A stretch of 64,000 bases of DNA from Thermoanaerobaculia bacterium (lineage in GTDB: Bacteria; Acidobacteriota; Thermoanaerobaculia; Multivoradales; JAGPDF01): the NCBI GenBank assembly GCA_046331385.1, contig JAXLQW010000001.1, positions 497,596 to 561,595 on the forward strand. The letters run 5' to 3'. Below, piece by piece: positions 2,376 to 48,100 of this stretch. How positions within the stretch are numbered: position 1 is the stretch's first letter; each line of letters begins with the position of its first letter. The notes beneath the pieces are model-generated. The model was given only the letters and a program-made list of their open reading frames with translations, was not told the DNA's origin and did no database searches. A program made the position numbers and the translations under genes.

Positions 2376-3932
2376 TCAGCGATTGCGCCCGTACTTCTCG
2401 TGGCTCGAGACCCAATCGAGCGAGGAGATCGCCGAAGCGAGCGAGATCTCGCCGGCGAGCACCACGCCGGCGACGATTTCCGCGAGCTTGCGCACCTTGC
2501 CGCGCCCGACGCAGTCGAGCACCGCCAGGCAGTCGCGCTGCGTCGGCAACCCCGTACCGCCGCCGTGGGTGGCGACGATCAACGACGGGATGGTGATCGA
2601 GATGTAGAGGTCGCGCTCGGGGGTGATCTCGGTGTAGACGATGCCGGCCGAGGACTCCGAGACGTTGGCCACGTCCTGGCCGGTGGCGATGAACATCGCG
2701 GTGATGCCGTTGGGCGAATGCGCGCCGTTGTTGTTGGCCCCGGAGATGAAGGCGCCGACGTTGGCGACCTGGGCATGGTAATGCAGCTGCTCGGGCTCGA
2801 CCCGCATGTTGTTCATCAGCACTTCGCGCGGGATCGTCGCCTCGGCGACCACCCGCTTGCCGCGGGTGCGCATGACGTTGACCTGCGAGGCCTTCTTGTC
2901 GGTCGCCAGGTTCGACTCGAGGTAGAACTTGCGCGCGTGCTCCTTCGGCCAGGGCTGCTCGAGAATCCACGAGCAGGCGGCGAAAGTGGCGCGCCCGACC
3001 ATGTTCTGGCCGGCGGCGTCGCCGGTCGAGAAGTTGAACCGCAGGTAGGCGAACTTGGACGCCAGGTAGGTGTCGATGTAGAGCAGCTTGGCGACCGTCG
3101 AGGTGGCCTCGGCCGCCTCGCGAATGGCGGTCAGGTTGACCTCGATCCAGTCGGAGAACTCACGCGCCTGGCGGGCGCCGTCGAAGACGAAGACCGGCGC
3201 GCGCTGCATGGCGTCGCCGATCACCGTGCAGGCGACGCCGCCGGAGAGGTTCAGCACCTTGATCCCGCGGTTGTAGGAGGCGACGAGGGTGCCCTCGGTG
3301 GTCGCGAGCGGAATCAGGAACTCTCCCTGCGCGTGCTCGCCTTCGACCTTCAGCGGCCCGGCGAACCCGATCGGGATCTGCGCGACGCCGGTGAAGTTCT
3401 CGACGTTGCCGCGCGTGATCGCCGGATCGAAGGAGAACTTGTCGACGTGCTGCAGGCGGTGGCCCGAGTACTCCTCGACGAAGCGCTGCCGGCGCCGGGC
3501 CATCTCGAGCGTGTGGTCGTCCTGCTTGTCGTAGGGAATCTGCGGTCGCTTCGGCACGTCCTCGGCGATCGCGTCGTTGACCTTGAAGGCGAGCTCGCCG
3601 AAGGGCTTGGCCTGGAAGGCGATCTCGATCTCGTGGTTGCCCTTGGCGAGCGAGTCGCGGTGCAGCCGGACGGTCACCACGCGCTTGAGCGGGAAGTCGA
3701 GCGGGTTTGCCTCGCCGAGGGCGGTGGCGGCGTGGACCACGCCCTCGCCGAGGTCGAGCTCGACGTGATCGAGCGGCACGTGCTGGCCGTCGATCGCCAC
3801 CCGGTCGAGGGTCAGGAGGGTCGCGTCGGAGAGCCGGTTCTTGAGACTGAATTGCACGCAGTTCTCGCCGTTCGCCAGACTGCCGAACGTGTAGAGCTGT
3901 TTGAGAAGCAGAGCTGGGATCTTGAAGAACAT
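2376..3932 (-). CDS. hmgR: Class I hydroxymethylglutaryl-CoA reductase with a ~130-aa N-terminal extension of unknown function
   Basis: Class I HMGR motifs are present: ENFTGVAQIPIGFAGPL, TTEGTLVASYNRG, GDAAGQNMV, and the C-terminal ...ATHGGGTGL. The catalytic region starts near residue 130. No transmembrane segment is evident in the N-terminal extension. Confidence 0.85.
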   Translation of the reverse strand: MFFKIPALLLKQLYTFGSLANGENCVQFSLKNRLSDATLLTLDRVAIDGQHVPLDHVELDLGEGVVHAATALGEANPLDFPLKRVVTVRLHRDSLAKGNHEIEIAFQAKPFGELAFKVNDAIAEDVPKRPQIPYDKQDDHTLEMARRRQRFVEEYSGHRLQHVDKFSFDPAITRGNVENFTGVAQIPIGFAGPLKVEGEHAQGEFLIPLATTEGTLVASYNRGIKVLNLSGGVACTVIGDAMQRAPVFVFDGARQAREFSDWIEVNLTAIREAAEATSTVAKLLYIDTYLASKFAYLRFNFSTGDAAGQNMVGRATFAACSWILEQPWPKEHARKFYLESNLATDKKASQVNVMRTRGKRVVAEATIPREVLMNNMRVEPEQLHYHAQVANVGAFISGANNNGAHSPNGITAMFIATGQDVANVSESSAGIVYTEITPERDLYISITIPSLIVATHGGGTGLPTQRDCLAVLDCVGRGKVRKLAEIVAGVVLAGEISLASAISSLDWVSSHEKYGRNR

Positions 3933-4023
3933 TCGGGCTCCCCGGGGGTCGGCGAGGAGTCTAGCGCGGTCCCGTCTCCGAACGGGGTCGGAGCGATCCG
4001 CGAGCGCCCGGCGGAAGTCCGGG

Positions 4024-6945
4024 CTAGGGCTCGGTGGTCCACCAGCGCCGCAGGTCGCCGCTCTCGAAGTGGTCTCCGAAGAGCGGCACGGCGAGCGCCA
4101 CCGGCGAGCAGCCGGCGGATTCCGAGAAGGCGCCGTTCAAGGCCCGAAGCTCGTAGGAATGCGTCGCTCCGCCGATCGCGCCGCGGTCGACGAAAGAGAG
4201 ATGGCTGGGCGAGATCTCGGCGAGCATCGCGCCGTCGCGGTAGAGGTCGTAGCGCCAGATGCCGGATTCGGGATCGACGACCGCGCCCCAATCGAGCCGC
4301 GCGTCGTCCGGATCGAGCGTCGCCGTCGGACCGGGGCAGGGCGGGCGCGACGGATCGGCGAGGCAGGCCGACGTCTCGACGTAGAGCCGCTGCAGGTTGG
4401 AGGGCACCCAGGCGAGAGCGAGCGCGACGCCGTTCCAGGCGATCGCCGAGCGGCCGCCGCGGTTGGCGAGGAATCGTTCGCCCGGCAACAGCGTCCCGTT
4501 GGGCAGCAGAGCCACCTCGCGCAGTGCGCCGTGCAAGCCCTCGACGTGGACCAGGCGGAAGCGATCGGTGTCCCAGTAGAGCTGCGGCTGGCGATCGTCC
4601 CAGTCGGTGCTGACCGCGACGACCTCCGGGAAGGCCTTGCTGCCATCGAGGTGGAGGACGGTGAAGTAGATGTCCTGACCGGGCGGATCGAGCGGCCCCT
4701 TGATCTGCGACCAGGCGACCGCGAGCTCCTTGCCGTTCCAGGCGGCGGTGAAGCCGCCGATCGGCAGGATGTTCGGCAGCGGCGAGGCCGCGATCTGAAC
4801 CGCCGGCACCGCCACCGAGCCGTCGGGATTCAGGAGGCCGAAGTAGAGGTTGCCGTTCTGCGGCCAGAGGACGGCCCAGCCGCTCCCGACCCAGAGCAGG
4901 GCCGGTCCGGAACCGCCGCAGGAGCCGAGGACTGTCAGCTTGCCGCCCACGAGTGCGCCGCTCGGAGCCACGCGCTGGAAGGTGAGCGAGCCGTTCTCCT
5001 GCCAGAGGGCGCCGTAGACCTCGCCGTTCCACTCGAGCGCCACGGCGCGATTGGTACCCTGATCCGAGAGCTGGGTCTCGGGAAACAGGGCGCTACCCGT
5101 CGAATCGAAACGCTGGAAGAGGATGTCGTTCGTGCCGGTCTCCCGCCAGGCGAGAGCGAACGTTCCGCCGAGGCTCGCCAGGCCGGGAGTCCCGGACCCA
5201 GGTCGCGGCGGGAAGGGCAAGACGTCCGCGACCGTGGTGCCGCTGCCGTCGACGATGCGCGCGCCGAAGCGCGACGCCGCGGTCGACGCGTCGGTCCAGA
5301 CGAAGACGAAGCCGGCGCCGAGCGTCGCCGCGCGCGCGTTGCCGGGACCGTTGTTGAGGAATGCATTTCCGGGGCTGTGGCCCGCGGTGATGGTCGTGGG
5401 CGCGGAGGGCGGGTTCACTCCCGAGGCGTCGACCAGCAAGTCGGCGATCTCGTGGCTACCGCCGCCGTTGTCGTTATAGACGGCAAGAAAGCGAGTGCCG
5501 TCGGTCGCGATGCGCGGGCTCGTAGAGAACAGCGCGTCGCTCGGCGAGAGCTGGACGCGAGATCCGGTCGGATTCCCGTCCGCATCCGCCGTGAGGCGCC
5601 CGATCTCGTACGACCCTGGCGGAGTCGGATCGTCCGAGGTGGCGAAAACGGCGAAGCCCGACGGCGGTTTGGGGAAAATCTGCGGCCCGAAGTCCTCGAC
5701 AGTCGCCGGATCCGAGATCCGTTGCGGCGCGCCGATCGGCGTGCCGTCGGCGAGGAGCGTCTGGAGGTAGACCCCGCCGTCGGAGAAGGTGGGGTCGTAG
5801 GCCGTCCAGGCGACTGCCCAGTGGGTTCCGTCCCAGGCGACGTGCGTACCGTTCCAGCCGTAGGCATTCGACGAGGATGCCAGGAGAACCGGCGATTCGG
5901 CGACGCCGGTCGACTCCTCGACGCGCTGGAAGTAGACGTACCAATTCGCATGTCGGTAGGCGATCCAAGCGGCGCCGACCTTACCGAGGCTCGGGCTCCA
6001 GGCCGCGGCGACCTCGGTCTTCTTGGTCGAGGGCACGCTCGAGATGACGAGCGGGCCGAGCTCGAGGTCGCCGGTCTCGCTCCAGCGAGCGAAGGTCACC
6101 TCTTGATACGGCGCCGTATCGGTGATCCCGAGGTAGTCCCAGCGCGAGCCGTCCCAGACCAGCGCGGTCTCGAAGGAGGAGTTGATTCCGATCGGCGGAG
6201 CGGCGCCGAACGGGCGTGCCCGGGCGCGCAGCGGCGAGCCGTCGGCGCGCAAGAGCGAGAAGAAGAAATTAGCGGGATTGGCGGCTCCGGGCTCGCCGCG
6301 CATCCCTTCATAGGACACCAGGCCGAAGCGCGCGCCGTTCCAGCGCAGGGTGGGGAACTGCGACGGCGAGTCGCTCTGCGAGAGGTTGGCCGGCGACCCG
6401 ATCGGCGTGCCGTCGACTCCGGCGAGGCGCTGCAGAAAGATCTCGTTGTTGCCGGTGGCGTCGCGCTCCTGCCAGGCGGCGCCCCAGTCGACTCCGTTCC
6501 AGGCCGCAGCGGGAAAACGCGCCGACGTGAGCCCGACGTCGAGCGGGCCGACGCAGACCCTTGCCGCGACCGCGGGAAAGGTGGTGGCGGTGGCGATGTT
6601 GGAGGCGTCGCCGTCGCCCCCGGCGGTCAGGGTCACCAGCCGGTAGTAGTAGACCGTGCCGGCGGAGAGTGCCGCGTCGACGAACTCCGTGTCGTTGGCG
6701 CCGGCGGCTCCGACCGGCGCCCAAACCGTGCCGCTCGGCGAGCGCTCGACCCGAAAGCCGGTCTCGTCGGCGTTCGGATCGAGCCAGCTCAGGCGAGAAT
6801 GATCGGTGGCGGTCGGTAGCGCGTAGAGGCCGATGGCGGCGTTCGCCGCGAGCGCGGCGGGCGCCAGTCCGATCGACAGGAGGCAGCTGAGCAGGAGCGG
6901 AACGGCGACTGCACCGGCGACCGCCGAGACGGACCGAGGGGCCAT
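4024..6945 (-). CDS. Large secreted repeat protein with N- and C-terminal fibronectin-III-like domains, ~12 W-x-G-containing repeats of ~50 aa, and the shared C-terminal tag LFGDHFESGDLRRWWTTEP
   Basis: Start trimmed to the ATG at 6943-6945 (MAPRSVSAVAGAVAVPLLLSCLLSIGLAPAALAANA, a signal peptide). An aaggagg RBS lies just upstream. Repeats have the form xAWNGxxWGAAW...GNNEIFLQRL..DGTPIG. The C-terminal 18 aa match those of the proteins ending at 18085 and 44159. Confidence 0.75.
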   Translation of the reverse strand: MAPRSVSAVAGAVAVPLLLSCLLSIGLAPAALAANAAIGLYALPTATDHSRLSWLDPNADETGFRVERSPSGTVWAPVGAAGANDTEFVDAALSAGTVYYYRLVTLTAGGDGDASNIATATTFPAVAARVCVGPLDVGLTSARFPAAAWNGVDWGAAWQERDATGNNEIFLQRLAGVDGTPIGSPANLSQSDSPSQFPTLRWNGARFGLVSYEGMRGEPGAANPANFFFSLLRADGSPLRARARPFGAAPPIGINSSFETALVWDGSRWDYLGITDTAPYQEVTFARWSETGDLELGPLVISSVPSTKKTEVAAAWSPSLGKVGAAWIAYRHANWYVYFQRVEESTGVAESPVLLASSSNAYGWNGTHVAWDGTHWAVAWTAYDPTFSDGGVYLQTLLADGTPIGAPQRISDPATVEDFGPQIFPKPPSGFAVFATSDDPTPPGSYEIGRLTADADGNPTGSRVQLSPSDALFSTSPRIATDGTRFLAVYNDNGGGSHEIADLLVDASGVNPPSAPTTITAGHSPGNAFLNNGPGNARAATLGAGFVFVWTDASTAASRFGARIVDGSGTTVADVLPFPPRPGSGTPGLASLGGTFALAWRETGTNDILFQRFDSTGSALFPETQLSDQGTNRAVALEWNGEVYGALWQENGSLTFQRVAPSGALVGGKLTVLGSCGGSGPALLWVGSGWAVLWPQNGNLYFGLLNPDGSVAVPAVQIAASPLPNILPIGGFTAAWNGKELAVAWSQIKGPLDPPGQDIYFTVLHLDGSKAFPEVVAVSTDWDDRQPQLYWDTDRFRLVHVEGLHGALREVALLPNGTLLPGERFLANRGGRSAIAWNGVALALAWVPSNLQRLYVETSACLADPSRPPCPGPTATLDPDDARLDWGAVVDPESGIWRYDLYRDGAMLAEISPSHLSFVDRGAIGGATHSYELRALNGAFSESAGCSPVALAVPLFGDHFESGDLRRWWTTEP

Positions 6946-7099
6946 GCAGACCTCCTTCTCGAGTCCTACCAGGAGCCACGTACCGCTTGAATCTCGATTC
7001 GCCAACGAGGGTACGCCCCAAGCTCCGAACCGTCAAGGCGGCCACGGCAGGACGGCGCCACCTTGCCTGCCTCCTTCTTCCAGGAAGGCGCCAGGTCGC

Positions 7100-7400
7100 A
7101 AGACTCACCCAAAGGCGAAAAGCGTTCGGCTAGGAGCGTGGGCTGGGCAACGCCCTCGTGAACTGGCGGCTGGGTGGCCTGGGCGCCGGACTCACAGCCA
7201 GTGTCCTTTTCCCTAGCCGAGCCTTCCCTTGCAGAGCGGCTGCAGGTCGAACGACTCACCCAAAGGCGAACAGCGTTCGGTTAGGAGCGTGGGCTGGGCG
7301 GCGCCCTCGTGCACTGGCCGAGAGGTCGGCTGGGCGCCGCTCTCACAGCCAGCATCCATTTCCCTGGCCGAGCCTTTCTTCGCAGGATGTGGCGCAGCCT
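7100..7400. repeat. Two tandem copies of the ~140-bp intergenic repeat family
   Basis: caaaggcgaa[a/c]agcgttcgg[c/t]taggagcgtgggctgggc..cgccctcgtg[a/c]actgg...ttccct[a/g]gccgagcc occurs twice here. It is homologous to 448-600 and 29090-29470. Confidence 0.6.
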
Positions 7401-7416
7401 CCGGTGGTGCCGGCGG

Positions 7417-9096
7417 TCAGTGGGCGGGGGCAGCCGCGGCCTCGAAGACCACTCTGCCGCCGACGACGGTGCGCAGCGCGTGGATGCCGGCGATGTCGTC
7501 CGGGGCGACGGCGAGCAGGTCGGCGGAGAGCTCGACGAAGTCGGCGAGCTTGCCGGGGGCCAGGGTTCCCTTGTCGTTCTCCTGGAACGCGGCCCAGGCG
7601 GCGCCCGAAGTGTAGGCGGCGAGGGCTTCGGCGACCGAGATCTTCTGCTCCGGGATCCAGCCGCCCGGGTTCTTGCCGTCGAGCGTCCGGCGGGTGACCG
7701 CGGCGGAGATGCCCTGGAGCGGATCGAGGGTCGCGACCGGCCAGTCGGAGCCGAAGGCAAGCTTGGCGCCCGAGTCGAGCAGCGAGCGGAAAGCGTAGGT
7801 CGTGCGGCAGCGCTCGGAGCCGATTCGCTTCTCCGCCCAGCGACCGTCGTCGGCCTCGTGGTAGGGCTGCATCGAGGGGACGACGCCGAGCGCCGCGAAG
7901 CGCGCGATGTCCTCGGAGCGCAGATGCTGCGCGTGCTCGACGCGGAATCGGCGGTCGCGCGGTCCGTTCTCCTTCGCCACCTGGGCGAAGACGTCGAGCA
8001 GCATGGCGTTGGCGCGGTCGCCGATGGCGTGAACCGAGACCTGGAAGCCGGCTCGGTCGGCGGCGGCGATCCGGTCGTGCAAGATGCCCTCGGGATGCCA
8101 GTCCTCGGCGAGCAGGCCGAAGTTTCCCGGCGAATCGAGGTAGGGCTGGAAGAAATAGGCGGTCGAGGAGCCTAGCGAACCGTCCATGTAGGCCTTGAAG
8201 CCGCCGAGCCGGAGCCATGCGTCCCCGGCGCCCTGCGCGCCGACGAGATCGCGCTGCCTCTCCCACTGCGCGAGCGGCGTCCGGCTGTAGAAGCGCACCG
8301 TCAGCTCGCCGCGCTTCTTCGCCGCCGCGAGCGCCTCCCACTCCGGCCACATCGTGATGTCGTGCACCGAGGTCACGCCGAGCTCGCCGGCGCGCTTCTC
8401 GGCGGCGAGCAGCGCCTGGCGGTACTGCTCGGGCGTCGGCGGCGGGACGACGTTGAAGACCAGGCCCATCGCCGCGTCCTTGAGCACCCCGGTCGGCTCG
8501 CCGCGCTCGTCGCGCACGATCGTGCCGCCCGCCGGGTCCTTCGTGTCGCGCGTGATGCCGGCGAGCTTCAGGGCGATCGAATTGGCGAGGCCCATGTGCC
8601 CGTCGAGCCGCTGCACGAAGACCGGGTGGTCGCCGACCGCGGCGTCGATCCACTCGCGGCGGGGGAGCGGCGCACCCGGCCAGCGCTCGTGGTCCCATTC
8701 GCCGCCGAGCACCCATTCGCCCTTCGACAGCTTGGCCGCGAACTCGCCGAGGCGCCGCGCGAACTCCTCGCGGCTCGCCGCGTAGCGCAAGTCGATCGTC
8801 AGCAGGGTGAAGCCACCGTCGAAGAAGTGGGTGTGGCTGTCGGTCAGTCCGGGGACGACCCGCCGCCCGCCGGCGTCCAAGAGCCGGGTCTTCGGCCCCA
8901 CCCAGGCGGCGATCTCGGCGTCGGTGCCGAGCGCTACGATCCGTTCGCCCACCACCGCGAGCGCCTGCGCTTCGGGGCGCGCCGCGTCGCCGGTCCAGAT
9001 GCGGGCGTGGCGCAGGACGAGATCGGCGGCATCGGCCGCCAGAGCGGGGGCGGCGACCCCAGCGAGGACGAGGCAGAGGAGCGGGACGCTGCGCAT
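7417..9096 (-). CDS. Secreted amidohydrolase family protein (Amidohydro_3, N-substituted formamide deformylase-like)
   Basis: Signal peptide MRSVPLLCLVLAGVAAPALA. Metal-binding motifs include TDSHTHFFDGG, HAIGD and the C-terminal GSDWPV. Start taken at the ATG at 9094-9096 with a gaggagg RBS. The ORF's longer 5' extension has no recognisable amidohydrolase motifs and is probably not coding. Confidence 0.8.
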   Translation of the reverse strand: MRSVPLLCLVLAGVAAPALAADAADLVLRHARIWTGDAARPEAQALAVVGERIVALGTDAEIAAWVGPKTRLLDAGGRRVVPGLTDSHTHFFDGGFTLLTIDLRYAASREEFARRLGEFAAKLSKGEWVLGGEWDHERWPGAPLPRREWIDAAVGDHPVFVQRLDGHMGLANSIALKLAGITRDTKDPAGGTIVRDERGEPTGVLKDAAMGLVFNVVPPPTPEQYRQALLAAEKRAGELGVTSVHDITMWPEWEALAAAKKRGELTVRFYSRTPLAQWERQRDLVGAQGAGDAWLRLGGFKAYMDGSLGSSTAYFFQPYLDSPGNFGLLAEDWHPEGILHDRIAAADRAGFQVSVHAIGDRANAMLLDVFAQVAKENGPRDRRFRVEHAQHLRSEDIARFAALGVVPSMQPYHEADDGRWAEKRIGSERCRTTYAFRSLLDSGAKLAFGSDWPVATLDPLQGISAAVTRRTLDGKNPGGWIPEQKISVAEALAAYTSGAAWAAFQENDKGTLAPGKLADFVELSADLLAVAPDDIAGIHALRTVVGGRVVFEAAAAPAH

Positions 9097-9207
9097 CGGT
9101 GAGCCTCCTCGACCGCCGGCGGCGGCCGTCCGGAATCGGGTTCGTGGACCGTCGCCGCATGCTAACATTCGACGGCTGTTCGAGATACGGAAAGCGACGG
9201 GATCCAG

Positions 9208-10557
9208 ATGGTGAACCTGATCGTGGTCGGGATGCAATGGGGAGACGAAGGCAAGGGGAAGATCGTCGATCTCCTCTCCCCGGCCTTCGATGGCGTCGTC
9301 CGCTACCAGGGCGGCCACAACGCCGGGCACACGGTGAAATTCGCCGATCGCCATTTCTCCCTGCAGCTGATTCCCTCGGGCATCCTCCATCCCGGAATGG
9401 ACTGCGTGCTCGGCAACGGCATGGTGATCGCGCCCGACGCCTTCTTCACCGAAGTCGAGCGGCTGGAAAAGGAGGGGGTGCGGGTCGAGAAGCGCCTCTT
9501 CGTGTCGAATCGCGCGCACGCGCTGCTGCCGCCGCACGCCCTTCTCGATCGCGCCCGCGAGAGCGCGATGGGCGCCGGCGCCATCGGCACCACGGCGCGC
9601 GGCATCGGTCCGGCCTACGAGAGCAAGGTCTCGCGCTACGGCCTGCGGCTCGGCGAGCTCGCCGAGCCGGATCTCGAGACGCGCCTGCGCGCCGTGCTCG
9701 AGCGCATGCAGCGCGAGCTCGGCGAGCGCTCGGCGGAGCCCTTGCCGCACCCGGCGAGGCTCGCCGATCAGTGCCGCTCGTGGTCGGCGCGTCTGGCGCC
9801 TTATCTGCGCGACACCGAGGAGCTGTTGCACGAGTGGCTGGGCAACGGCCGCAGCCTGCTCTTCGAGGGCGCCCAGGGCACGCTGCTCGACGTCGACCAC
9901 GGCACCTACCCCTACGTCACTTCGAGCAACTCGACCGCCGGCGGCGCCTGCACCGGCAGCGGCGTGCCGCCGACCGCGATCGACGGCGTGCTCGGCATCG
10001 TCAAGGCCTACACCACCCGGGTCGGCGGCGGGCCCTTCCCCGGCGAGCTCACCGACGAGCGCGGCGAGTACCTGCGCCAGCGCGGCAACGAGTTCGGCAC
10101 GGTCACCGGCCGCCCGCGGCGCTGCGGTTGGTTCGATGCGGTAGCGGTGCGCTACGCCCGCCAGTTGAACGGCACGGAGATCCTGGCGTTGACCAAGCTC
10201 GACGTACTCGACACGCTGCCCGAGATCCCGGTCTGCATCGCTTACCGCATCGACGGCCGGGAGGTGCGGCATCTGCCCTCGAGTCAGCGCGCGCTCGAGC
10301 GCGCCGAGCCGGTGTTCAAGGTCCTCAAGGGTTGGGAGAAGCCGACCAACGGGATCCTCGACTACGAGGCGCTGCCGCGCGCGGCGCGCGAGTACGTCGA
10401 TTTCCTGGAGCAGCAGGTCGATGCGCGCATCGCCATCCTGTCCACCGGACCGCGGCGCGAGGAGACGATCGTGCGCGAGAGCCCGACGATGTCGCGCTGG
10501 TTGGCGAGCAAGATGGTGCGCGTGCTCGCCGAGCGCAGCGGCAGCTATCCGCTATAA
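9208..10557 (+). CDS. purA: Adenylosuccinate synthetase
   Basis: N-terminus MVNLIVVGMQWGDEGKGKIVDLL..YQGGHNAGHTV matches the PurA P-loop and GHNAGHT signature. Full length, 449 aa. Confidence 0.95.
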   Translation: MVNLIVVGMQWGDEGKGKIVDLLSPAFDGVVRYQGGHNAGHTVKFADRHFSLQLIPSGILHPGMDCVLGNGMVIAPDAFFTEVERLEKEGVRVEKRLFVSNRAHALLPPHALLDRARESAMGAGAIGTTARGIGPAYESKVSRYGLRLGELAEPDLETRLRAVLERMQRELGERSAEPLPHPARLADQCRSWSARLAPYLRDTEELLHEWLGNGRSLLFEGAQGTLLDVDHGTYPYVTSSNSTAGGACTGSGVPPTAIDGVLGIVKAYTTRVGGGPFPGELTDERGEYLRQRGNEFGTVTGRPRRCGWFDAVAVRYARQLNGTEILALTKLDVLDTLPEIPVCIAYRIDGREVRHLPSSQRALERAEPVFKVLKGWEKPTNGILDYEALPRAAREYVDFLEQQVDARIAILSTGPRREETIVRESPTMSRWLASKMVRVLAERSGSYPL

Positions 10558-10570
10558 TGCGCCGCGCGCG

Positions 10571-10646
<76 letters not shown>

Positions 10647-10678
10647 ACCCGAGCTCTCCCCGCCGCACGCCGCACGAC

Positions 10679-10756
10679 CGGCCCCATCGTCTAGCCCGGT
10701 CCAGGACATCGCCCTTTCAAGGCGCAAACACGGGTTCGAATCCCGTTGGGGCTACC
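10679..10756 (+). tRNA. tRNA-Glu (anticodon TTC)
   Basis: The tcgtctag D-arm and the anticodon loop ctttcaa flanked by tcgcc/ggcgc give anticodon TTC. T-arm acggg-ttcgaat-cccgt. Acceptor ggcccca/tggggct. CCA is encoded. Boundaries are ±2 nt. Confidence 0.8.
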
Positions 10757-11085
10757 AATCCTCGCTTCGCTCGCTCGACACCTCGGCCGGGATCCGGTCC
10801 TGCCTGGGCCTGAACGGCCCGGCAGGTGGCGAATCCCGTTGGGGCTACCAATCCTCGCTTCGCTCGCTCGACACCTCGGCCGGGATCCGGTCCTGCCCGG
10901 GCCTGAACGTCCCGGCAGGAGGCGAATCCCGTTGGGGCTACCAAACCTCGCTTCGCTCGCTCGACACCTCGGCCGGGATCCGGTCCTGCCTGGGCCTGAA
11001 CGGCCCGGCAGGCGGCGAATCCCGTTGGGGCTACCAAACCTCGCTGCGCTCGGGACCAACTCGGCGGGATAAGGCGTCGCTGGGA
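10757..11085 (+). repeat. Tandem array of ~93-bp units, each reiterating the last ~22 nt of tRNA-Glu (gcgaatcccgttggggctacca) plus a ~72-nt spacer with a 12-bp hairpin; three pseudo-copies follow the genuine tRNA 3' end
   Basis: gcgaatcccgttggggctacca recurs at about 10829, 10922 and 11015. The spacer is atcctcgcttcgctcgctcgacacctcggccgggatccggtcctgcctgggcctgaacggcccggcagg. The last unit has a divergent tail, ...ctcgctgcgctcgggaccaactcggcggg. Confidence 0.8.
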
Positions 11086-11472
11086 TGAACGGGGCCTCTG
11101 CACACGCACAGGCCGCGTCGGCAGTGGCGATGCGAGCGCCGCGAGGATCGTCGTTTCGACGCTCCCGAGTGGCGCGCTGCGTCGCCCGCAACCTAACCGT
11201 TGCCGGCGCGTATCAGCCGCCTAAGCTCACCTCATGCGGCACCTCCGAGTACTCAAGCCAGGCAAACTTCGTAACGAGGCGCGCAAGCCCTCTCGCGGAT
11301 TCGTCGAAGCGTCGATGCGGACGGTTCGACCCTTGGACGCGAAACTCCATCCGGCGCTCGATCGGGCCCAGCAGCGTTCGGTCGAAGGACAAGTGGCTTG
11401 CCTGGACGAAAACCGACGGACCGCCCCGAGCCGCGCCAAGCGTGTCGACCGCAGCCCGCACGGAGGGAGACG

Positions 11473-13539
11473 ATGACGATCAGCCGACGAGCCTTTCTCA
11501 AAGCTGCAGCAGCCATCGGTGCTTCGCTCGCATGGGTCGGACCGGCGCGAGGTTCGCGGGTCCACTGGCACGAGCGGCGCGATCTCTATCCTCAAGGGGT
11601 CGCCTCGGGCGATCCCGATCCGAGGAGCGTCATCCTGTGGACGAGGCGTCCGTTTGCCCAGGGCACGCGCGAGCTGCTCACCGTCGAGGTCGCCGAGGAC
11701 GAGGGCTTCCACCGGGTCGTTGCGCACGCCAAGGCCCCGGTCTCCCTCGCCGCGGACTGGACCGCGCGCGTGCTCATCGGCGGACTCGAGCCGGCACGCA
11801 CTTACTGGTATCGCTTCACCGACAGCGACGGCAACGGCAGCCGGGTCGGCCGCACGATCACCGCGCCGTTGCCCGAAGATCCCCGCGCGGTGAACTTCGC
11901 CTTCGTCAGCTGCCAGGACGTCAACGAAGGCAAGCTCAACGGCTATCGCCGGATGATCTACGAAGACGAGCGGGCGCCTGTCGCCGAGCAGCTCGGCTTT
12001 GTGTTGCACCTGGGCGATTTCATCTACGAGGTCGTCGAGTATCCCGACGAGGTCAAGACACGCTACGACCGCACGATCTACGAGGTCGCACGCCTTCCGG
12101 ACAGCCACAAGGTCGGCAACTTCCACATCCCGCTGACCGTCGAGGGCTACCGCGCGATCTACAAAGGCTATCTCGTCGATCCCGACCTCCAGGACGCGCG
12201 CGCCCGCTGGCCGTTCGTCTGCATCTGGGACAACCACGAGTTCTCCTGGCAGGGTTGGCAGAGCACCGTCAAGGCAGGGAAGTTCGAGCAACCCGCCCCG
12301 AGCATCAAGATCGCGGCGAATCAGGCCTGGTTCGAATACCTCCCCGCGCGCGTCGCGCCGCCGAGCGGGTCGCTCGACCAGTTCGGTCCGCCCGCCGTGA
12401 AGGACGGAGTTCCCATCCAGGAGCTCGACGACAGCGGTCTGGGGCTGGAGCCGAACAACCTGACGGCGATCCACAGCCTCAAGGCCTACCGGACGCTGCG
12501 CTATGGCCGGAACCTGGATCTGATCGTCACCGACCAGCACAGCTACCGCAGCGCGGATTGCTTCAGCGATCCGTCGCTGGGGAATCTCGGCGGCGACGAG
12601 TTCATCTCCATGTTTCCCGAGTCTCTGATGAAGGTCCTCGATGGCGGGCGCGCCGCGAACGGGGGCCATCCTCCGGCGGAGATCCGCTTCAACGACGCGC
12701 ACGTCCCCAATCCGCAACGCAACGCGCCGCCGCAGACGATCCTCGGGGCGGAGCAGAAGGCGTGGTTCAAGGAGAGGCTCCGGAGCTCGACGGCTTCGTG
12801 GAAGATCTGGGCCAACTCCCAGGGCACGCTCGACCAGCGCGCCGACCCGCAGAACCTGCCCGCGGGTCTCACCAAGGAACCCTGGCCCGCAGACGGCGGG
12901 TACGCAGCCATGAGCGGCGGCGACTACGGCAGCGCATACATGGAGCGCGCCGAGATCTACCAGCTCGTGCGCGATTCGCAGGTGTCGGGCTTCGCCATCG
13001 TCTCGGGCGACCTCCACAGCTTCTGGGCCGGCTATGCGGCCGCCGAGCTTCCACCCGGCAAGTTCGACCCCGTCGGCCTGAGCTTCGTCGGCGCCTCGCT
13101 GACCAGCCCGGGCGCCATGGAAGCGCAGGAGCACAATCTGCCGAAGGACATTCCGCTCCGGTCGCTGTTTCTCGCCGACAAGCCGTCGGGGCCACCGGAC
13201 TGGACCCACAACATGCTGCTCCGGCACGGCGTTCGCTCCTGTCTCGAGTACGCCAAGAGCTTCGATCTCGCGCGCGCCCGAGCGCTCTCCAACCCGGATC
13301 TCGCGCCGCACCTCGAGTTCGTGGATCTCGGAGGGCACGGGTACGCGAAGGTCCGGCTGTCGGCCGACGAGATGCGCACCGAGTTCGTCTGCATTCCGCG
13401 CCCGATTGCGCGCAGCGAACGACCGGACGGCGGGCCCATTCGGTATCGGGTCGAGCTCACTGCCGCACTCTGGAAGAGCGGAGAGCGCCCCCGGCTCAAG
13501 ACCTCGGTCCTCGAAGGCGACGTCGGGCTGTCGATCTGA
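11473..13539 (+). CDS. phoD: Tat-secreted PhoD-like phosphatase/phosphodiesterase (alkaline phosphatase D family)
   Basis: Twin-arginine signal MTISRRAFLKAAAAIGASLA. PhoD motifs are present: FVSCQD, HLGDFIYE, WDNHEF. Start trimmed to the ATG at 11473, preceded by a ggaggga RBS. Confidence 0.8.
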   Translation: MTISRRAFLKAAAAIGASLAWVGPARGSRVHWHERRDLYPQGVASGDPDPRSVILWTRRPFAQGTRELLTVEVAEDEGFHRVVAHAKAPVSLAADWTARVLIGGLEPARTYWYRFTDSDGNGSRVGRTITAPLPEDPRAVNFAFVSCQDVNEGKLNGYRRMIYEDERAPVAEQLGFVLHLGDFIYEVVEYPDEVKTRYDRTIYEVARLPDSHKVGNFHIPLTVEGYRAIYKGYLVDPDLQDARARWPFVCIWDNHEFSWQGWQSTVKAGKFEQPAPSIKIAANQAWFEYLPARVAPPSGSLDQFGPPAVKDGVPIQELDDSGLGLEPNNLTAIHSLKAYRTLRYGRNLDLIVTDQHSYRSADCFSDPSLGNLGGDEFISMFPESLMKVLDGGRAANGGHPPAEIRFNDAHVPNPQRNAPPQTILGAEQKAWFKERLRSSTASWKIWANSQGTLDQRADPQNLPAGLTKEPWPADGGYAAMSGGDYGSAYMERAEIYQLVRDSQVSGFAIVSGDLHSFWAGYAAAELPPGKFDPVGLSFVGASLTSPGAMEAQEHNLPKDIPLRSLFLADKPSGPPDWTHNMLLRHGVRSCLEYAKSFDLARARALSNPDLAPHLEFVDLGGHGYAKVRLSADEMRTEFVCIPRPIARSERPDGGPIRYRVELTAALWKSGERPRLKTSVLEGDVGLSI

Positions 13540-13547
13540 CCGGCCCG

Positions 13548-13645
13548 CGATCTGGGCCTGAACGGCCCGGCCGGCGGCGAATCGCGTTGGGGTTACCGCC
13601 GCTTTCTGCGCTCGATTCCAACTCGACGGGTTTCGGGATCATTCT
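13548..13645 (+). repeat. Degenerate copy of the tRNA-Glu 3'-end repeat unit, forming the right-hand direct repeat around the phoD segment
   Basis: ctgggcctgaacggcccggccggcggcgaatcgcgttggggttaccgccgctttctgcgctcgattccaactcgacggg is ~85% identical to the last unit of the 10757-11085 array. Confidence 0.65.
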
Positions 13646-13766
13646 CCCGGAGTGCCCGCGGATGGCGCATGGCTCCAGGGCCGCCTGCGCCCCGAGGGCG
13701 GTGGCCACGTCATCCCTTCCGCGCGCCGGGTAGGATTCGCCGTCGAATTGGAAAGGACGCTGAACC

Positions 13767-14600
13767 ATGAACAGGATCTGCCTCGTTTTCGGCCTCGGCC
13801 TGCTGACCGCCGCCACCGCCCGGGCGGGAAGCGGGCCGTTTTTCGACACTTACAGCCACGGCATGGAGGTCGGAGAGCTCGAGCTCGAGCTCGGAGTCGA
13901 CGCGGTGCGCTCGCCGCGAGGCGAGTGGACCTACGGACAGGTGGCCGAGTTGGAGCGCGGCTTCGATCCGCACTTCGCCTCGGCGCTCTACCTCCTGGGT
14001 ACCTGGGCGCCCGGAGAGTCGCCGCGGATCGACGGCTTCAAACTTCAGGGGCGCTTCCGCCCTTGGCTGGCGAACAACTTCTTCCTCCCGGTCTTCTACT
14101 TGGAGTACGAACAGTTCCATCATCCCGAGACCTATCGCGAGCTGGTCGTGGGCACGCTCGAAGAAGAAGAGGCGGGAGAGTTCGCGACCGAACACGAACT
14201 CGAGGGGCGCTTGATCTTCTCGCAGGACTTCGACTGGGGGAATCTGTCGCTCGACTTGGCCGCCGAGAAGAATCTCGACGGCGGCGAGATCGCCGTCGGC
14301 TATACCGTCGGTTTCTTCCTCCTGGGCCCGAATCGGATCTACTCGGGTGCGGCGGCGTTCGATCCGGACGGCGACGGCGACTCGCACCTCCTCTATGGAG
14401 TCGAGCTCTTCGGCGGGCTCGGCGAGCGGGGCGACCTGGGCCTCCACGCCGCGCGTCAGGAGCACTACCTCCAACCCTTCCTTGCGGTCCCGCTCTCCGA
14501 CCGGCTGGCGCTCAAGGCGGCGCTGGCGATCGGTTTGACTTCGGGCTCCGGCGATCTCGTGCGCGCGCTGCTCGTGGTGCGGCTGGGTCGCGCGCTCTAG
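13767..14600 (+). CDS. Hypothetical secreted protein, possibly an outer-membrane beta-barrel
   Basis: Signal peptide MNRICLVFGLGLLTAATARA. Alternating-hydrophobic, Gly/Tyr-rich beta-strand-like segments. No recognisable catalytic motif. Confidence 0.5.
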   Translation: MNRICLVFGLGLLTAATARAGSGPFFDTYSHGMEVGELELELGVDAVRSPRGEWTYGQVAELERGFDPHFASALYLLGTWAPGESPRIDGFKLQGRFRPWLANNFFLPVFYLEYEQFHHPETYRELVVGTLEEEEAGEFATEHELEGRLIFSQDFDWGNLSLDLAAEKNLDGGEIAVGYTVGFFLLGPNRIYSGAAAFDPDGDGDSHLLYGVELFGGLGERGDLGLHAARQEHYLQPFLAVPLSDRLALKAALAIGLTSGSGDLVRALLVVRLGRAL

Positions 14601-25548: not shown

Positions 25549-27153
25549 TTAGCCCGGATCCACGGATAAGGCGGGGATGTTGAAGTAGCGGAAGCGCCCC
25601 AAGCCTGATAAGACGGCGCTGTTCAAGGTCGTCGTCTTCAGGAGAGGAGCACTTCCGAGGTGAAGATCCCAAAGCGAGTCCGTGGCGTCAAGTTCCGATC
25701 GTCGGGCGCGGCGACGACCTCCTTCGCGGGCCTGCGTTTCGTGGTCGAGCTGGCGTCGAAGCTGCGAGTGATCGAGCGGCTCCGCGTCGTTTCGGTGAAG
25801 AAACGCCGTCGAGGAATTCCAGTCGAGGACTTCGTGATGAGCCTGGCGTCGAGCTTTCTGGTCGGCGGCGACAGCCTGAGCGATCTGTCTGTGCTGCGAG
25901 AAGAGACCGTGACGCGCGAGTTGTGCTTCGATCTCGAGGTGCCGGCGCCGACGACGGCGGGCGAGCGTCTGCGCAGCTTCTCGTTGGGTCACCTGCGACA
26001 GCTCGATGGAGCCCAGCGTGAGACCTGCCGCGAAATTCTCGAGCGGACGAGTGGGAGCGAAGCGCTGACGCTGGACGTGGACAGCTCGATCATCGAGGTC
26101 TACGGCGACCAGAAGCAGGGTGCGCGTTTCGGCTACAGCGGCGTGCGTGGGCTGCATCCGCTGCTGGCCTTCGCTCACGAGGAGCGGCTTCTGTTGGGGG
26201 CGCGGCTACGCGCGGGCAACCGAGCCTCGTCGGACGGCGTCGTCCCGTTTCTCGAAGACGTCCTCACGGCGATCCCGGCTCGCCGTCGGGTGCGCCTGCG
26301 GATGGACGCCGGTTTCTACGGCAAGTCGGTGGAAGGATTCGCGACCGAGCGTGCCCTGGGCTTCAGCATTTCGGCGAGGCTGACGAAGCGGCTGCGCGCC
26401 GAGATCGAAGCGCTTCCCGAAGGGGCGTGGCGCAGCTATCCGTGGGAAGAAGAGGCCGAGTACGCCGAGCTGCGTTACCGGCCCACGGGCTGGTCGAGCG
26501 ACTACCGCCTCCTCGTCAAGCGGACGCCCTGGTTCGACCAGGAGCAGCGCCTGCTCGACGAGCACTTCTTCACGCCGGTCATCACCAACCTGCCGGGCGC
26601 CGCGAGCAGCCTGATTCGCTATCACCTGGCACGCGGTGGGGCCGAGAACTACATCGAGGAGTTCAAGTCCGGCATCGGCGCCTCGCATCTGCCCTCACGC
26701 TGCTTTCACGCCAACTGGGCCTGGCTGTTGATCGCCGCTCTCGCTTACAACCTCGCGCAAGCCTTCAAGCTCCTGCTGCTCCCCGCCGCCGAGCAGGCGC
26801 AGCAGATCAAGAAGCTGCGCCTGCACTGGCTGTGCGTCGCCGCCCGCTTCATCCGCACCGGCAGACGCTTCGTCCTGGCGCTCGCTCGCGGACCGGACAC
26901 GGCCAACGCCTTCGAGCGCCTGCAACAACAGCTCACCACGCTCTGATTCCGCAACCAAGGGAAGCGGCATCCCGGCTGCGCGCCAGGAGTGTCTCCCGCG
27001 GACCCCTCCATCCTCCAACTCACGCTCGACCACCGCCTTCGACCGCGAACACCAGCCCTACCTGAGCCAGAAATCCGCCGCGCGGGTGGCCGCTGCAGCA
27101 ATCTGAGCCCGTCCGCTCCACTTCAGCCGCCTTACCCGTGGATCCGGGCTTAG
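25549..27153 (+). mobile_element. IS1380-family insertion sequence (~1.6 kb) with 24-27-bp imperfect terminal inverted repeats
   Basis: IRL ttagcccggatccacggataaggcgg at 25549-25574. IRR ccgccttacccgtggatccgggcttagg at 27127-27153, whose reverse complement matches IRL at 24 of 26 positions. One transposase ORF lies between them. No clean target-site duplication could be identified. Confidence 0.75.
25660..26946 (+). CDS. IS1380-family DDE transposase
   Basis: 428 aa. GTG start preceded by ggagaggag. Features characteristic of IS4/IS1380-type transposases: ...VDSSIIEVYGDQKQGARFGYSGVRGLHPL... and C-terminal YHLARGGAENYIEEFKSGIGASHLPSRCFHANWAWLLIAALAYNL. Confidence 0.7.
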   Translation: MKIPKRVRGVKFRSSGAATTSFAGLRFVVELASKLRVIERLRVVSVKKRRRGIPVEDFVMSLASSFLVGGDSLSDLSVLREETVTRELCFDLEVPAPTTAGERLRSFSLGHLRQLDGAQRETCREILERTSGSEALTLDVDSSIIEVYGDQKQGARFGYSGVRGLHPLLAFAHEERLLLGARLRAGNRASSDGVVPFLEDVLTAIPARRRVRLRMDAGFYGKSVEGFATERALGFSISARLTKRLRAEIEALPEGAWRSYPWEEEAEYAELRYRPTGWSSDYRLLVKRTPWFDQEQRLLDEHFFTPVITNLPGAASSLIRYHLARGGAENYIEEFKSGIGASHLPSRCFHANWAWLLIAALAYNLAQAFKLLLLPAAEQAQQIKKLRLHWLCVAARFIRTGRRFVLALARGPDTANAFERLQQQLTTL

Positions 27154-45102: not shown

Positions 45103-48100
45103 TCAGCCCGCGTTTGCCGAAGCGGTTCCGGAGGTGGTTCTCGCGCGCGGCGGTCGGGCTCCTCGCCACGCTCGTCTGGGGCCAGGCGCCGGCTCGGGCC
45201 CAGGTGATCGTCGACAGCTTCACCACCGTCCAGTCGACTCTCAGCGCACCGCCCGACGCGAGCTCGACCGCCACCGGCGGCGCCGACATCGTCGGCACCA
45301 AGCGCGGCATCGTGCAGCACGAAGTCGCGGGCGCCGGGCCGTCGACGGTCGCGGTCGCCGCCGGCCTGTTGACCCTGACGGTACCCAACACGACCCCCGA
45401 TTCGCGCGCCGAAGCGCGGCTCTCCTGGGACGGCGACAACAGCCCGGCGGTGCTCAATCCGACCGGCCTCGGAGCCGTCAACCTGACCGCCGGCAACTCC
45501 GGCGGATTTCGCATCCGCGTCGCTTCGGCGGGCGCCGGAGCCGAGCTCGAATTCGCCGTCTACTCGACCGCCGCCAACTTCTCGCGCGCCGCCCGCCTGC
45601 TGCCGGCGATCGCCTCGTCGACCGACGTCTTCCTGTCGTTTTCGGAGTTCCGCACGGCCGGCGGCACGGGGGCCAACTTCGCCAGCGTCGGCGCCATCGA
45701 GCTCACCGTGCGCGGCAAGGAGATCGCCGTCGTCCTCGACGAGATCGTCACCAGCGCGCCGATCCTGGCGGCGACCAAGGTGGACGCGCAGACGGTCGAC
45801 GTCGACGGCGACACGCGGGTCGATCCCGGCGACCGGGTGCGCTACACGGTAACCATCACCAACACCGGAAACGACGCGCTGGCGGTCGACCTGACGGACG
45901 CGGTCGACGCCAACACCACGCTGGTCGCGGGCTCGGTGCACTCGACGCCGGTGGCGCGCAACGACCAGTACGGCTGGTTTGGGAACGTGACCTTCGCCGC
46001 CGACGGGAGCGCCGGCCGGCCCGGCCTGCTCGCCAACGACGAGGACGGCGACGGCGACACGCTCACCGTGACCTCGGTCTCGCCGACCAGCTCCCAGGGC
46101 GGCACGGTCACCCTCGACGATGCCGCGACCGGCAAGTTCACCTACGCTCCGCCGGCGGGCTTCGCCGGCGTCGATTCGTTCGGCTACACGCTGCAGGACG
46201 ACGACGGCAACAGCAAGTCGGCGACCGCCTACGTCCAGCTCAAGGGAATCGTCTGGTTCGTCGACAATGCCTGCTCGGTCGGCTGCGGTCAGGGGACCTT
46301 CTCCTCGCCGTTCACCACCCTGCCGCAGGCCGAGACCGCCTCGGGCGCCAACGACATCGTTTACGTCCGTACGGGCTCGGGGGCCTACGACACCGGTGCG
46401 GCGAACGGCTTTTCCATGGACGCCGATGAGCAGCTGCTGGGCGAAGGCGTCGCCCTGGTGCTCGACGGCACGACGATCGTGCCGGTCGGCGCGCCGCCGC
46501 TGCTCACCAACGAGGTGGCGACGGTGGGTCGGGGCGTCACCCTGGCCGCCAGCGGCACCGACACCCTCCGCGGCCTGACGATCGGCAACACCGCCGGCGC
46601 GAAGATCTTCGGCAACACCTTCGGCACCCTGGCGACCGACACCCTCACCCTGAACGGCACGGGCCAGGCGCTCGACCTGACCAACGGGGTGCTGGCGACG
46701 ACGCTCGTCGGTCTCGCGTCGTCGACCAGCGCCACGACCGGGATCTCGCTCGCGACAGTCTCGGGTTCACTGACGGTGACCGGCTCGACGGGAATCACCA
46801 ATCCCGCCGGTACCGGTATCAGCATCGCGACTTCGACCGCCGCGCTGAGCTTCGCGTCGACGAGCATCGACAAGAGCGCGAGCGCCGGAACCGGGTTGTC
46901 GATCACCGGCAGCAGCGGCACGACCGGCTTCTCGAACCTGGCGGTCACGACCAGCGCCGGTACCGGCGTTCTCGTCTCCGGCAGCCCGCTCTCCGTGGGC
47001 GGCTCGGCGAGCACGATCGCCGCCACCGGCGGCCCGGCCCTCGACCTCACCACCGTGAACCTCGGCGCCGGCGCGACCTTCGCCACTGCGAGCTCGACCG
47101 GCAGCGCCGGCAAGGGCATGAACCTCGACACCCTGACCGGCGCCCTGACCATGAACGGCGGCTCGATCAGCACGCCAACCGGCACCGCGTTCGACCTCAA
47201 CGCCGGCTCCGCCAACGTGACCTACGCCGGCTCGGTCAGCAACACGGCGAACGCGCTCCTGGTCGAGATCACCGGCCGCAGCGGCGGCACGGTGGCGCTC
47301 TCGGGCGCGCTCTCGAGCACCGGCTCGGGCAACGGCATCAGCGTGGCCAACAACACCGGCGGCACGATCAACTTCAGCAACGCCTCGAAGACGCTGACCA
47401 CCGGCGCGGATCCGGCGGTGACGCTCGCCAGCAACACCGGCGCGACGATCAACTTCAGCGGCGGCGGGCTGGCGATCACCACCACCTCGGGCGCCGGCTT
47501 CACCGCCACCGGCGGAGCGACGGCGATCACGGTCCAGGGCACCGCCAACACGATCAGCTCGACGACCGGCACGGCGCTCAACGTCGCGAATTCGACGATC
47601 GGCGCGAGCGGCTTGACCTTCCAGAGCGTCTCGGCGAACGGCGCTTCGCGCGGCATCGTGCTGAACACGACCGGTGCCTCCGGCGGGCTGACCGTGACGG
47701 GCAACGGCGGCACGTGCACCAGCGCGGATACTTCCGGCTGTTCCGGCGGGACGATTCAGGCGTCGACGGGCGCGGATGACTCGAGCCTCACGCCGGCCGG
47801 GACCGGGATCGTGCTCAACAGCACGGCGAGCGTCTCGCTCACGCGTATGTTCATCCACGACCACAGCAACTACGGAATTCGCGGCACCTCGGTGGCCGGG
47901 TTCACGCTCGATCAGAGCGTACTCGGTGGCACCAACGGCGGCCCGCTCCCGGCCAGCGCCGGTTCGCCTTTCCACGACGGCTCCATCAAGTTCGACAACC
48001 TGACCGGCTCGGCGACCATCTCGAATTCGGCGATCAGCGGCGGTTTCTCGAACAACGTGCGCGTCGACAACACCACGGGCACCCTCAACCGCATCACCTT

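Follow-up and report, generated by a model that had tools for sequence, protein, structure and literature searches.

Reiterated tRNA-Glu 3' ends beside an imported phoD gene in a Thermoanaerobaculia genome: a tRNA trailer array or the trace of an integrative element?

Does the 3' end of a tRNA gene, repeated next to foreign DNA, necessarily betray a site-specific integration event? The question is raised by a stretch of 64,000 nt from a Thermoanaerobaculia bacterium (GenBank assembly GCA_046331385.1, contig JAXLQW010000001.1, positions 497,596 to 561,595; hereafter the window). Here the end of a tRNA-Glu gene recurs in tandem, and a further copy lies just after a single gene, phoD, which encodes a phosphatase. 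The original prediction, made from the sequence without database searches, interpreted the repeats as accumulated attachment-site (attL/attR) remnants and phoD as the cargo of a decayed or minimal integrative element. The explanation that we rank as most likely, with a probability of about 0.5, is a tRNA trailer array of the kind found at the tyrT operon of E. coli. Unequal recombination would have amplified this array, and the arrival of an imported phoD fragment would afterwards have interrupted its older part. A decayed islet made by an integrase is ranked next and is more doubtful.

Tandem Repeats Finder delimits an array at 10737-11052 with a period of 93 bp (3.4 copies, 96% matches, score 583). 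Its first three units are contiguous, measure exactly 93 bp each and show a mutual identity of 96-100%. Each is composed of a 21-nt core derived from the tRNA, a 41-nt trailer, a 28-nt hairpin and 3 nt. The core, CGAATCCCGTTGGGGCTACCA, spans C56 of the T-loop (TTCGAAT) to CCA, and exact copies start at 10737 (inside the tRNA-Glu gene), 10830, 10923 and 11016. The tandem recurrence of the tRNA-Glu 3' end at about 93 bp, as first noticed, is thus confirmed. The three further copies stand as well, at these starts instead of 10829, 10922 and 11015, and the repeated segment is 21 nt long, not about 22. The hairpin predicted in every spacer is also found in the three full units, at 10799-10826, 10892-10919 and 10985-11012. 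Its sequence is CCTGCC(T/C)GGGCC-TGAAC-G(G/T)CCCGGCAGG and its stem has 11-12 bp with one bulge. The window contains five core copies and four hairpin copies, all at the array/phoD locus; neither motif occurs elsewhere in it, where shuffled sequences lead one to expect 0 to 0.02 matches. An exact search for the unit junction returned nothing from JGI metagenome contigs or from IMG/VR viral contigs. A dispersed repeat resembling repetitive extragenic palindromes (REP) or miniature inverted-repeat transposable elements (MITE) is not supported, given this confinement to one locus of the 64-kb window and the lack of exact matches in the two collections. Since the 93-bp period is divisible by 3, the array is traversed by open reading frames (ORFs). 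They lie at 10746-11072 on the plus strand (108 aa) and at 10691-11191 (166 aa) and 10717-11109 (130 aa) on the minus strand. No credible Pfam match was obtained for the ORFs of the 10691-11191 region.

The array extends past the third unit because a fourth keeps its own degenerate hairpin half. Beyond its first 37 nt, this unit continues to about 11092 with a degenerate trailer and a degenerate 5' hairpin half, a continuation missed in the original prediction. A fifth unit begins 13 nt past the phoD stop codon (13537-13539) and shares 84% identity over 79 nt with 10990-11068. Its core matches the 21-nt core at 18 positions. Its hairpin carries 20 of 20 bases as in units 1 and 3, and over the 30 nt that precede the core, 23-26 positions are conserved. 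Its first 55 nt match unit 4 at 42 positions versus 32 for units 1-3, in agreement with the earlier observation that the copy downstream of phoD (13552-13636) is closest to the last divergent unit. The divergence of units 4 and 5 suggests that they are older members of the array.

The extent of this similarity is important for the nature of the repeats. The homology of unit 5 reaches about 26 nt 5' of the core, through the non-tRNA hairpin, and about 38 nt 3' of CCA, through the trailer. A crossover at an att site should leave nothing in common but the tRNA-derived core, and a whole-unit match of this type is not its expected product. Moreover, a contiguous array of equal-length units points to amplification of one unit, not to independent att remnants. 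The proposed accumulation of attL/attR remnants is consequently not supported. The unit lengths favor the same process: the observed 316 bp is the sum of a 37-nt block (core plus 16 nt) present four times and a 56-nt block present three times, which is exactly what unequal exchange between two pre-existing 37-nt repeats would produce.

A similar organization exists in E. coli K-12 (NC_000913), where a 178-bp unit is repeated 3.1 times, with 95% identity, directly behind tyrV. At the end of each copy is AATCCTTCCCCCACCACCA, which corresponds to the terminal 19 nt of tRNA-Tyr from the T-loop onward, and each copy also includes a GTTGCC/GGCAAC hairpin. One unit of the tyrV repeats is annotated as the RttR small RNA, with the tiny ORF tpr within. 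A passage of PMC3318445, citing Bosl and Kersten 1991, describes rttR as encoded by a repeat unit of the tyrT operon. In both genomes the last bases of a tRNA gene already belong to the tandem array, which runs on downstream, and every unit repeats the T-loop-to-CCA end of the tRNA, some 20 nt long (19 nt for E. coli and 21 nt in the window). Both also show a short GC hairpin per unit, about three copies plus a partial one, and an extra pseudo 3' end further along. However, the unit is 178 bp long in E. coli versus 93 bp here, and the E. coli repeats follow duplicated tRNA-Tyr genes whereas a single tRNA-Glu gene following tRNA-Lys is present in the window. Only here is the older part of the array split by an imported protein gene. 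The two arrays have no sequence or Rfam relationship, and the resemblance is therefore architectural, of kind and not of family. Rfam searches, at the gathering threshold over the whole window and at E<=1 over 10400-13800, retrieved only the two tRNAs and no RtT.

The second component of the locus, phoD, encodes a protein with a twin-arginine signal (MTISRRAFLK) followed by PhoD_N and PhoD domains (Pfam). In a collection of 5.8 billion proteins it has more than 120 clusters at 81-92% identity, some of them from bins labelled as other phyla; the best non-self match of purA, the gene preceding the tRNA pair, is only 71% in the same collection. We retrieved 89 loci carrying a phoD homologue for comparison (numbered L081-L174). 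Their DNA identity to the window gene is 82-92%, reaching 90-92% with genes in unrelated contexts. Nonsynonymous divergence (dN) between phoD and its nearest homologues is 0.04 and the proportion of synonymous differences (pS) is 0.21-0.27, to be compared with 0.22-0.27 and 0.38-0.45 for purA and its nearest relatives. The G+C content (GC) of phoD is 0.671 versus 0.702 for the rest of the window. It varies from 0.59 to 0.71 in the family versus 0.38 to 0.72 in the flanks. The neighborhood differs in every locus and includes toxin-antitoxin pairs, IS110, ileS-lspA, and TIR and SIR2 proteins. No flanking gene common to the window and the phoD loci, which could have served to calibrate relatedness, was found. 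As judged from these comparisons, phoD is foreign and horizontally acquired, and its family is exchanged very widely.

Homology among the 89 loci is confined to about 11448-13549, from the ribosome-binding region, common to almost all phoD homologues, to a few bases past the stop codon. Beyond these limits it is restricted to the three or four closest loci, as short patches upstream of the gene: 11173-11248 with L097 (85%), 11183-11212 with L095/L096 and 11373-11447 with L115. The imported fragment therefore covers at least 11173-13549 (at least 2.38 kb), the stretch spanned by homology with phoD loci. The edges of homology vary from locus to locus (-3 to -33 upstream, +1 to +58 downstream), which argues against one precise recombination site.

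The array and phoD appear to be specific to this lineage. The order purA then tRNA-Lys is kept in relatives, and among the matches listed from species-representative genomes, those at 65-67% purA identity have purA then tRNA-Lys and no tRNA-Glu. Two loci at 70% purA identity are informative. In L175, purA is followed by tRNA-Lys, 308 nt and tRNA-Glu; in L176, the tRNA-Lys/tRNA-Glu pair lies 4 kb from purA. Both show a single tRNA 3' end without tandem repeat or phoD, so that the tRNA pair would be native and the array and phoD lineage-specific. The comparison across relatives recommended with the original prediction thus gives the absence pattern, but at only about 70% purA identity, and the L175 and L176 trailers are too distant to align with unit 5. 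The sequence 3' of tRNA-Glu is poorly syntenic throughout.

The following history may be proposed. The array would have grown in at least two layers. Tandem units would have formed behind tRNA-Glu and diverged into what are now units 4 and 5. A more recent round, involving a pair of 37-nt repeats and either unequal homologous recombination or replication slippage, would have generated units 1-3. A foreign fragment of at least 2.38 kb (11173-13549), comprising phoD, its ribosome-binding region and some upstream flank, would have landed in the older part of the array, probably by illegitimate or some other non-site-specific recombination into a gene-free stretch beside the tRNA. Any insert in a tandem array is automatically bracketed by direct repeats, and the bracket around phoD therefore needs no integrase. 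The corresponding features are listed in Table 1.

Table 1. Positions in the window of the tRNA genes, repeat units and neighboring features
Feature	Position	Strand	Description
purA	9208-10557		Directly 5' of tRNA-Lys
tRNA-Lys(UUU)	10572-10647	+	ARAGORN and Rfam; first of the tRNA pair, just 3' of purA
tRNA-Glu(UUC)	10680-10757	+	ARAGORN and Rfam; last 21 nt (10737-10757) form the first array core
Units 1-3	10737-10829, 10830-10922, 10923-11015	+	Near-identical 93-bp units
Unit 4	11016-11092	+	Core plus 16 nt matches unit 3 at 36/37; rest degenerate
Left junction zone	11093-11172		No Pfam match; between the last recognizable unit sequence and the start of phoD-locus homology
Imported upstream flank	11173-11472	+	Patches common to other phoD loci
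phoD	11473-13539	+	688 aa; PhoD-family alkaline phosphatase, Tat-secreted by its signal; judged horizontally acquired
Unit 5	13552-13636	+	Hairpin part 13552-13574, core 13578-13598, then trailer
ORF13767	13767-14600	+	Next gene after phoD; 277 aa, signal peptide, no Pfam family

The competing explanation is that of a tRNA-targeted element that has decayed, which we regard as possible but doubtful. According to this, the T-loop of tRNA-Glu was the crossover point of a tyrosine integrase that has since disappeared. Unit 5 would be the displaced original 3' end (attR), the hairpin would mark where the element ends on the right, and phoD would be what is left of its cargo; the 93-bp units would be the collapsed element (left plus right end), later amplified. 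A tRNA gene, foreign DNA and a tRNA fragment in the same orientation constitute the signature used to map islands (PMC4383910), and the T-loop is one of the two usual crossover positions, used by a large class of tyrosine integrases (PMC4383910, PMC1762012). The locus displays this Islander-type signature minus the integrase: an intact tRNA-Glu gene at one end, the clearly foreign phoD, and a co-oriented displaced fragment that starts in the T-loop at the other (13578-13598, plus strand, 18/21). The trailer of units 1-3 moreover resembles the sequence after the unit 4 core and their hairpin is the one found before the unit 5 core, as a collapsed element predicts, and relatives have a single tRNA 3' end. 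However, the direct repeat is not limited to the tRNA-derived block but continues into non-tRNA sequence on both sides, the three extra fragments stand in strict 93-bp tandem with identical spacers, and the insert holds a single gene in 2.5 kb, far less than known islands. The trailer of unit 5, chromosomal under this hypothesis, is homologous (42 of 55 positions) to that of unit 4, which would belong to the element; site-specific recombination does not predict this. Recognizable foreign sequence begins only at 11173, 137 nt past the unit 4 core. As the original prediction stated, no integrase remains: Pfam scans revealed neither integrase nor remnant among the called genes of 2376-35542, nor, at E<=1, in the ORFs of the array and of 11085-11516. 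IMG/VR contains no unit copies and no phoD relatives, plasmids offer nothing above 36% identity to phoD, and four IMG/VR matches to the tRNA-Glu 3' end, considered as att sites, proved to be complete phage tRNA-Glu genes. What survives of the cargo proposal is that phoD is foreign, that a tRNA gene lies immediately 5' of the segment and that direct repeats flank it; the repeats themselves do not look like att sites, and unit 5 copies a whole unit. Support for an element also comes from other phoD loci. A tRNA gene occurs within 400 nt of phoD in 5 of 84 non-redundant contexts, whereas the frequency in the outer flanks of these loci predicts 0.8 (P about 0.0015). In four of the five, as in the window, phoD is on the 3' side of the tRNA, and one of these tRNAs is tRNA-Glu. 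Yet the other tRNA-adjacent loci have no second tRNA fragment or bracketing direct repeat, and no integrase in the flanks scanned; a tRNA fragment or unit copy was found in none of the 89. A variant in which a single-gene islet without integrase uses the unit of hairpin and pseudo-3'-end as its attachment site appears improbable. The islet would be mobilized in trans by a tRNA-Glu-specific integrase encoded elsewhere, such systems would deliver the phoD family beside tRNA genes, and the 93-bp units would be empty collapsed copies.

Several observations weigh against the trailer-array explanation as well. The repeats start exactly in the T-loop, a crossover position of tyrosine integrases, so that the very first duplication could have been made by an integrase. 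Removal of the insert does not restore one clean unit: hairpin-like sequence is present at both junctions, which does not correspond to a simple cut and paste. The roughly sixfold excess of phoD homologues near tRNA genes, mostly on the 3' side, fits tRNA-targeted islands, and the hairpin fold is unexceptional for a sequence of 70% GC (z-scores of -0.7 to -1.5). In addition, the collections searched include no genome close enough to reveal an array lacking phoD, so the order of events is deduced from one sequence. Compatible with either origin is the idea, unlikely in our view, that the array is kept for a function. It could provide structured stops or processing sites for read-through from a strong tRNA promoter before it reaches phoD, or be the source of a stable rtT-like small RNA released from the transcript of the tRNA operon. 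The E. coli counterpart is co-transcribed with tyrT and yields RttR from one unit (PMC3318445). In the window all parts are co-oriented, a -10-like TATAAT box is present at about 10552-10557 ahead of tRNA-Lys, each 93-bp unit folds as a long imperfect hairpin (about -40 to -43 kcal/mol), and the array hairpin recurs 13 nt past the phoD stop codon, an expected position for a terminator. However, no T-run follows any hairpin, a terminator scan identified no intrinsic terminator in the array, the folding energies are no better than those of shuffled sequences, and unit 2 has two stem-weakening substitutions without compensation. Rfam gives no match, RtT included, and no homologous array was found in the other genomes searched. 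Speculatively, the hairpins are at most processing sites, pause sites or insulators between the tRNA promoter and phoD. A tRNA-like or otherwise exceptional fold of the unit was rejected, its energies being no better than those of shuffles and its 3' end not being placed as in a minihelix substrate. An integron cassette was also considered: phoD is promoter-poor, stands as a single gene in many different contexts, shares homology that stops within tens of bases of the ORF, and is followed in the window by an imperfect palindrome. But no GTTRRRY / RYYYAAC core pair is visible, no integron integrase accompanies it and the boundaries vary by locus. A cassette with attC was rejected, since homology ends 1-58 nt past the stop codon and the array hairpin is absent from all 89 other phoD loci. 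Lastly, mis-assembly of the tandem copies or of the phoD junctions seems scarcely credible. The contig is derived from a metagenome, in which short tandem repeats are sometimes mis-resolved, but the units differ at specific positions and are not perfect copies, the degenerate units 4 and 5 do not resemble collapse or expansion errors, the contig is 4.5 Mb long, and GC and coding signal are smooth across the junctions.

The locus is a tidy and fairly ordinary case, accounted for by known processes. It illustrates that a reiterated tRNA 3' end beside foreign DNA is insufficient alone as proof of an integrative element. A tandem-amplified tRNA trailer, as at E. coli tyrT, looks alike once foreign DNA has landed in it, and island finders based on tRNA fragments could be misled. 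The more useful by-product is the exchange of the phoD family, which moves among hosts of 38-72% GC as little more than a gene and its ribosome-binding region. phoD is a widely used marker gene for soil phosphorus cycling, and its exchange and its adjacency to tRNA genes therefore bear on the taxonomic interpretation of such data.

Further details emerged from the phoD loci. Protein identity across L081-L174 is 71-92%, and homology usually reaches no further than 30 nt before the ORF and 10 nt after it. The conserved translation-start region CAACTGCAGCCCGGACGGAGTGAGACGATG (11444-11475 in the window, about 30 nt before the ATG) travels with phoD in most loci. A longer leader of 57-190 nt (GGCGTTCGCGTCCGAATCCTGAGGTGACGCC...) is common to L083, L106, L107, L108, L112, L119, L124, L126, L128, L149 and L152. 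A 76-nt element (GTCGCCCGCAACCTAACCGTTGCCGGCGCGTATCAGCC..., 11173-11248) lies 225-300 nt 5' of phoD in the window and 40-135 nt 5' of it in the closest homologues L095, L096 and L097, so that about 200 extra bases separate the two in the window; it may be an imported promoter or leader. The C-terminal relic of an amidohydrolase-like gene (...GVGYDPAKLKRSVEGLMGL) adjoins phoD downstream in L083-L085 and upstream in L115, and is also present in L119. Its position on differing sides points to repeated rearrangement around phoD. In the window, a 23-nt trace at 11373-11395 matches the end of the amidohydrolase gene next to phoD in L115 and L083; ORFs across 11085-11516 have no Pfam match, and there is no coding remnant there beyond this trace. 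The neighbors in L081, L082, L083, L091, L092 and L106 are often typical of the flexible genome: PemK toxin, VapB/VapC (PIN) pairs, IS110 transposase, TIR-domain and SIR2-like proteins and an AAA_13/SMC-like ATPase. The tRNA-adjacent loci are L097, L106, L130, L133 and L149 (and L099, L123, L139 and L159), with tRNAs Pro, Asp, Glu, Cys and Met.

The surroundings of the locus in the window (70% GC) deserve a brief description. Upstream, the order HMG-CoA reductase, sometimes amidohydrolase, then purA (2376-10557 in the window) is kept in L175-L177 at 70% purA identity. In place of the amidohydrolase, the window has a 993-aa fibronectin-III protein (4024-7005) and an unannotated ORF (7343-9160). 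Downstream of phoD, ORF13767 has 48 homologues only, the best at 76-80% identity. Its neighbors elsewhere are metal-related, either a cation efflux pump with a cNMP-binding regulator or a DtxR-type repressor. Its contexts elsewhere are unrelated and without link to phoD or tRNA-Glu, and it was accepted neither as a phoD partner nor as an indicator of the empty site. An ARAGORN call of tRNA-Thr(GGU), 97 nt long, at 47135-47231 on the minus strand falls below the Rfam tRNA gathering score and is probably a false positive. The only mobile-element gene in the scanned part of the window encodes a DDE transposase (DDE_Tnp_1_4, E=1e-57) and is located at 25660-26946 on the plus strand, between cytochrome oxidase genes and glutamine synthetase.

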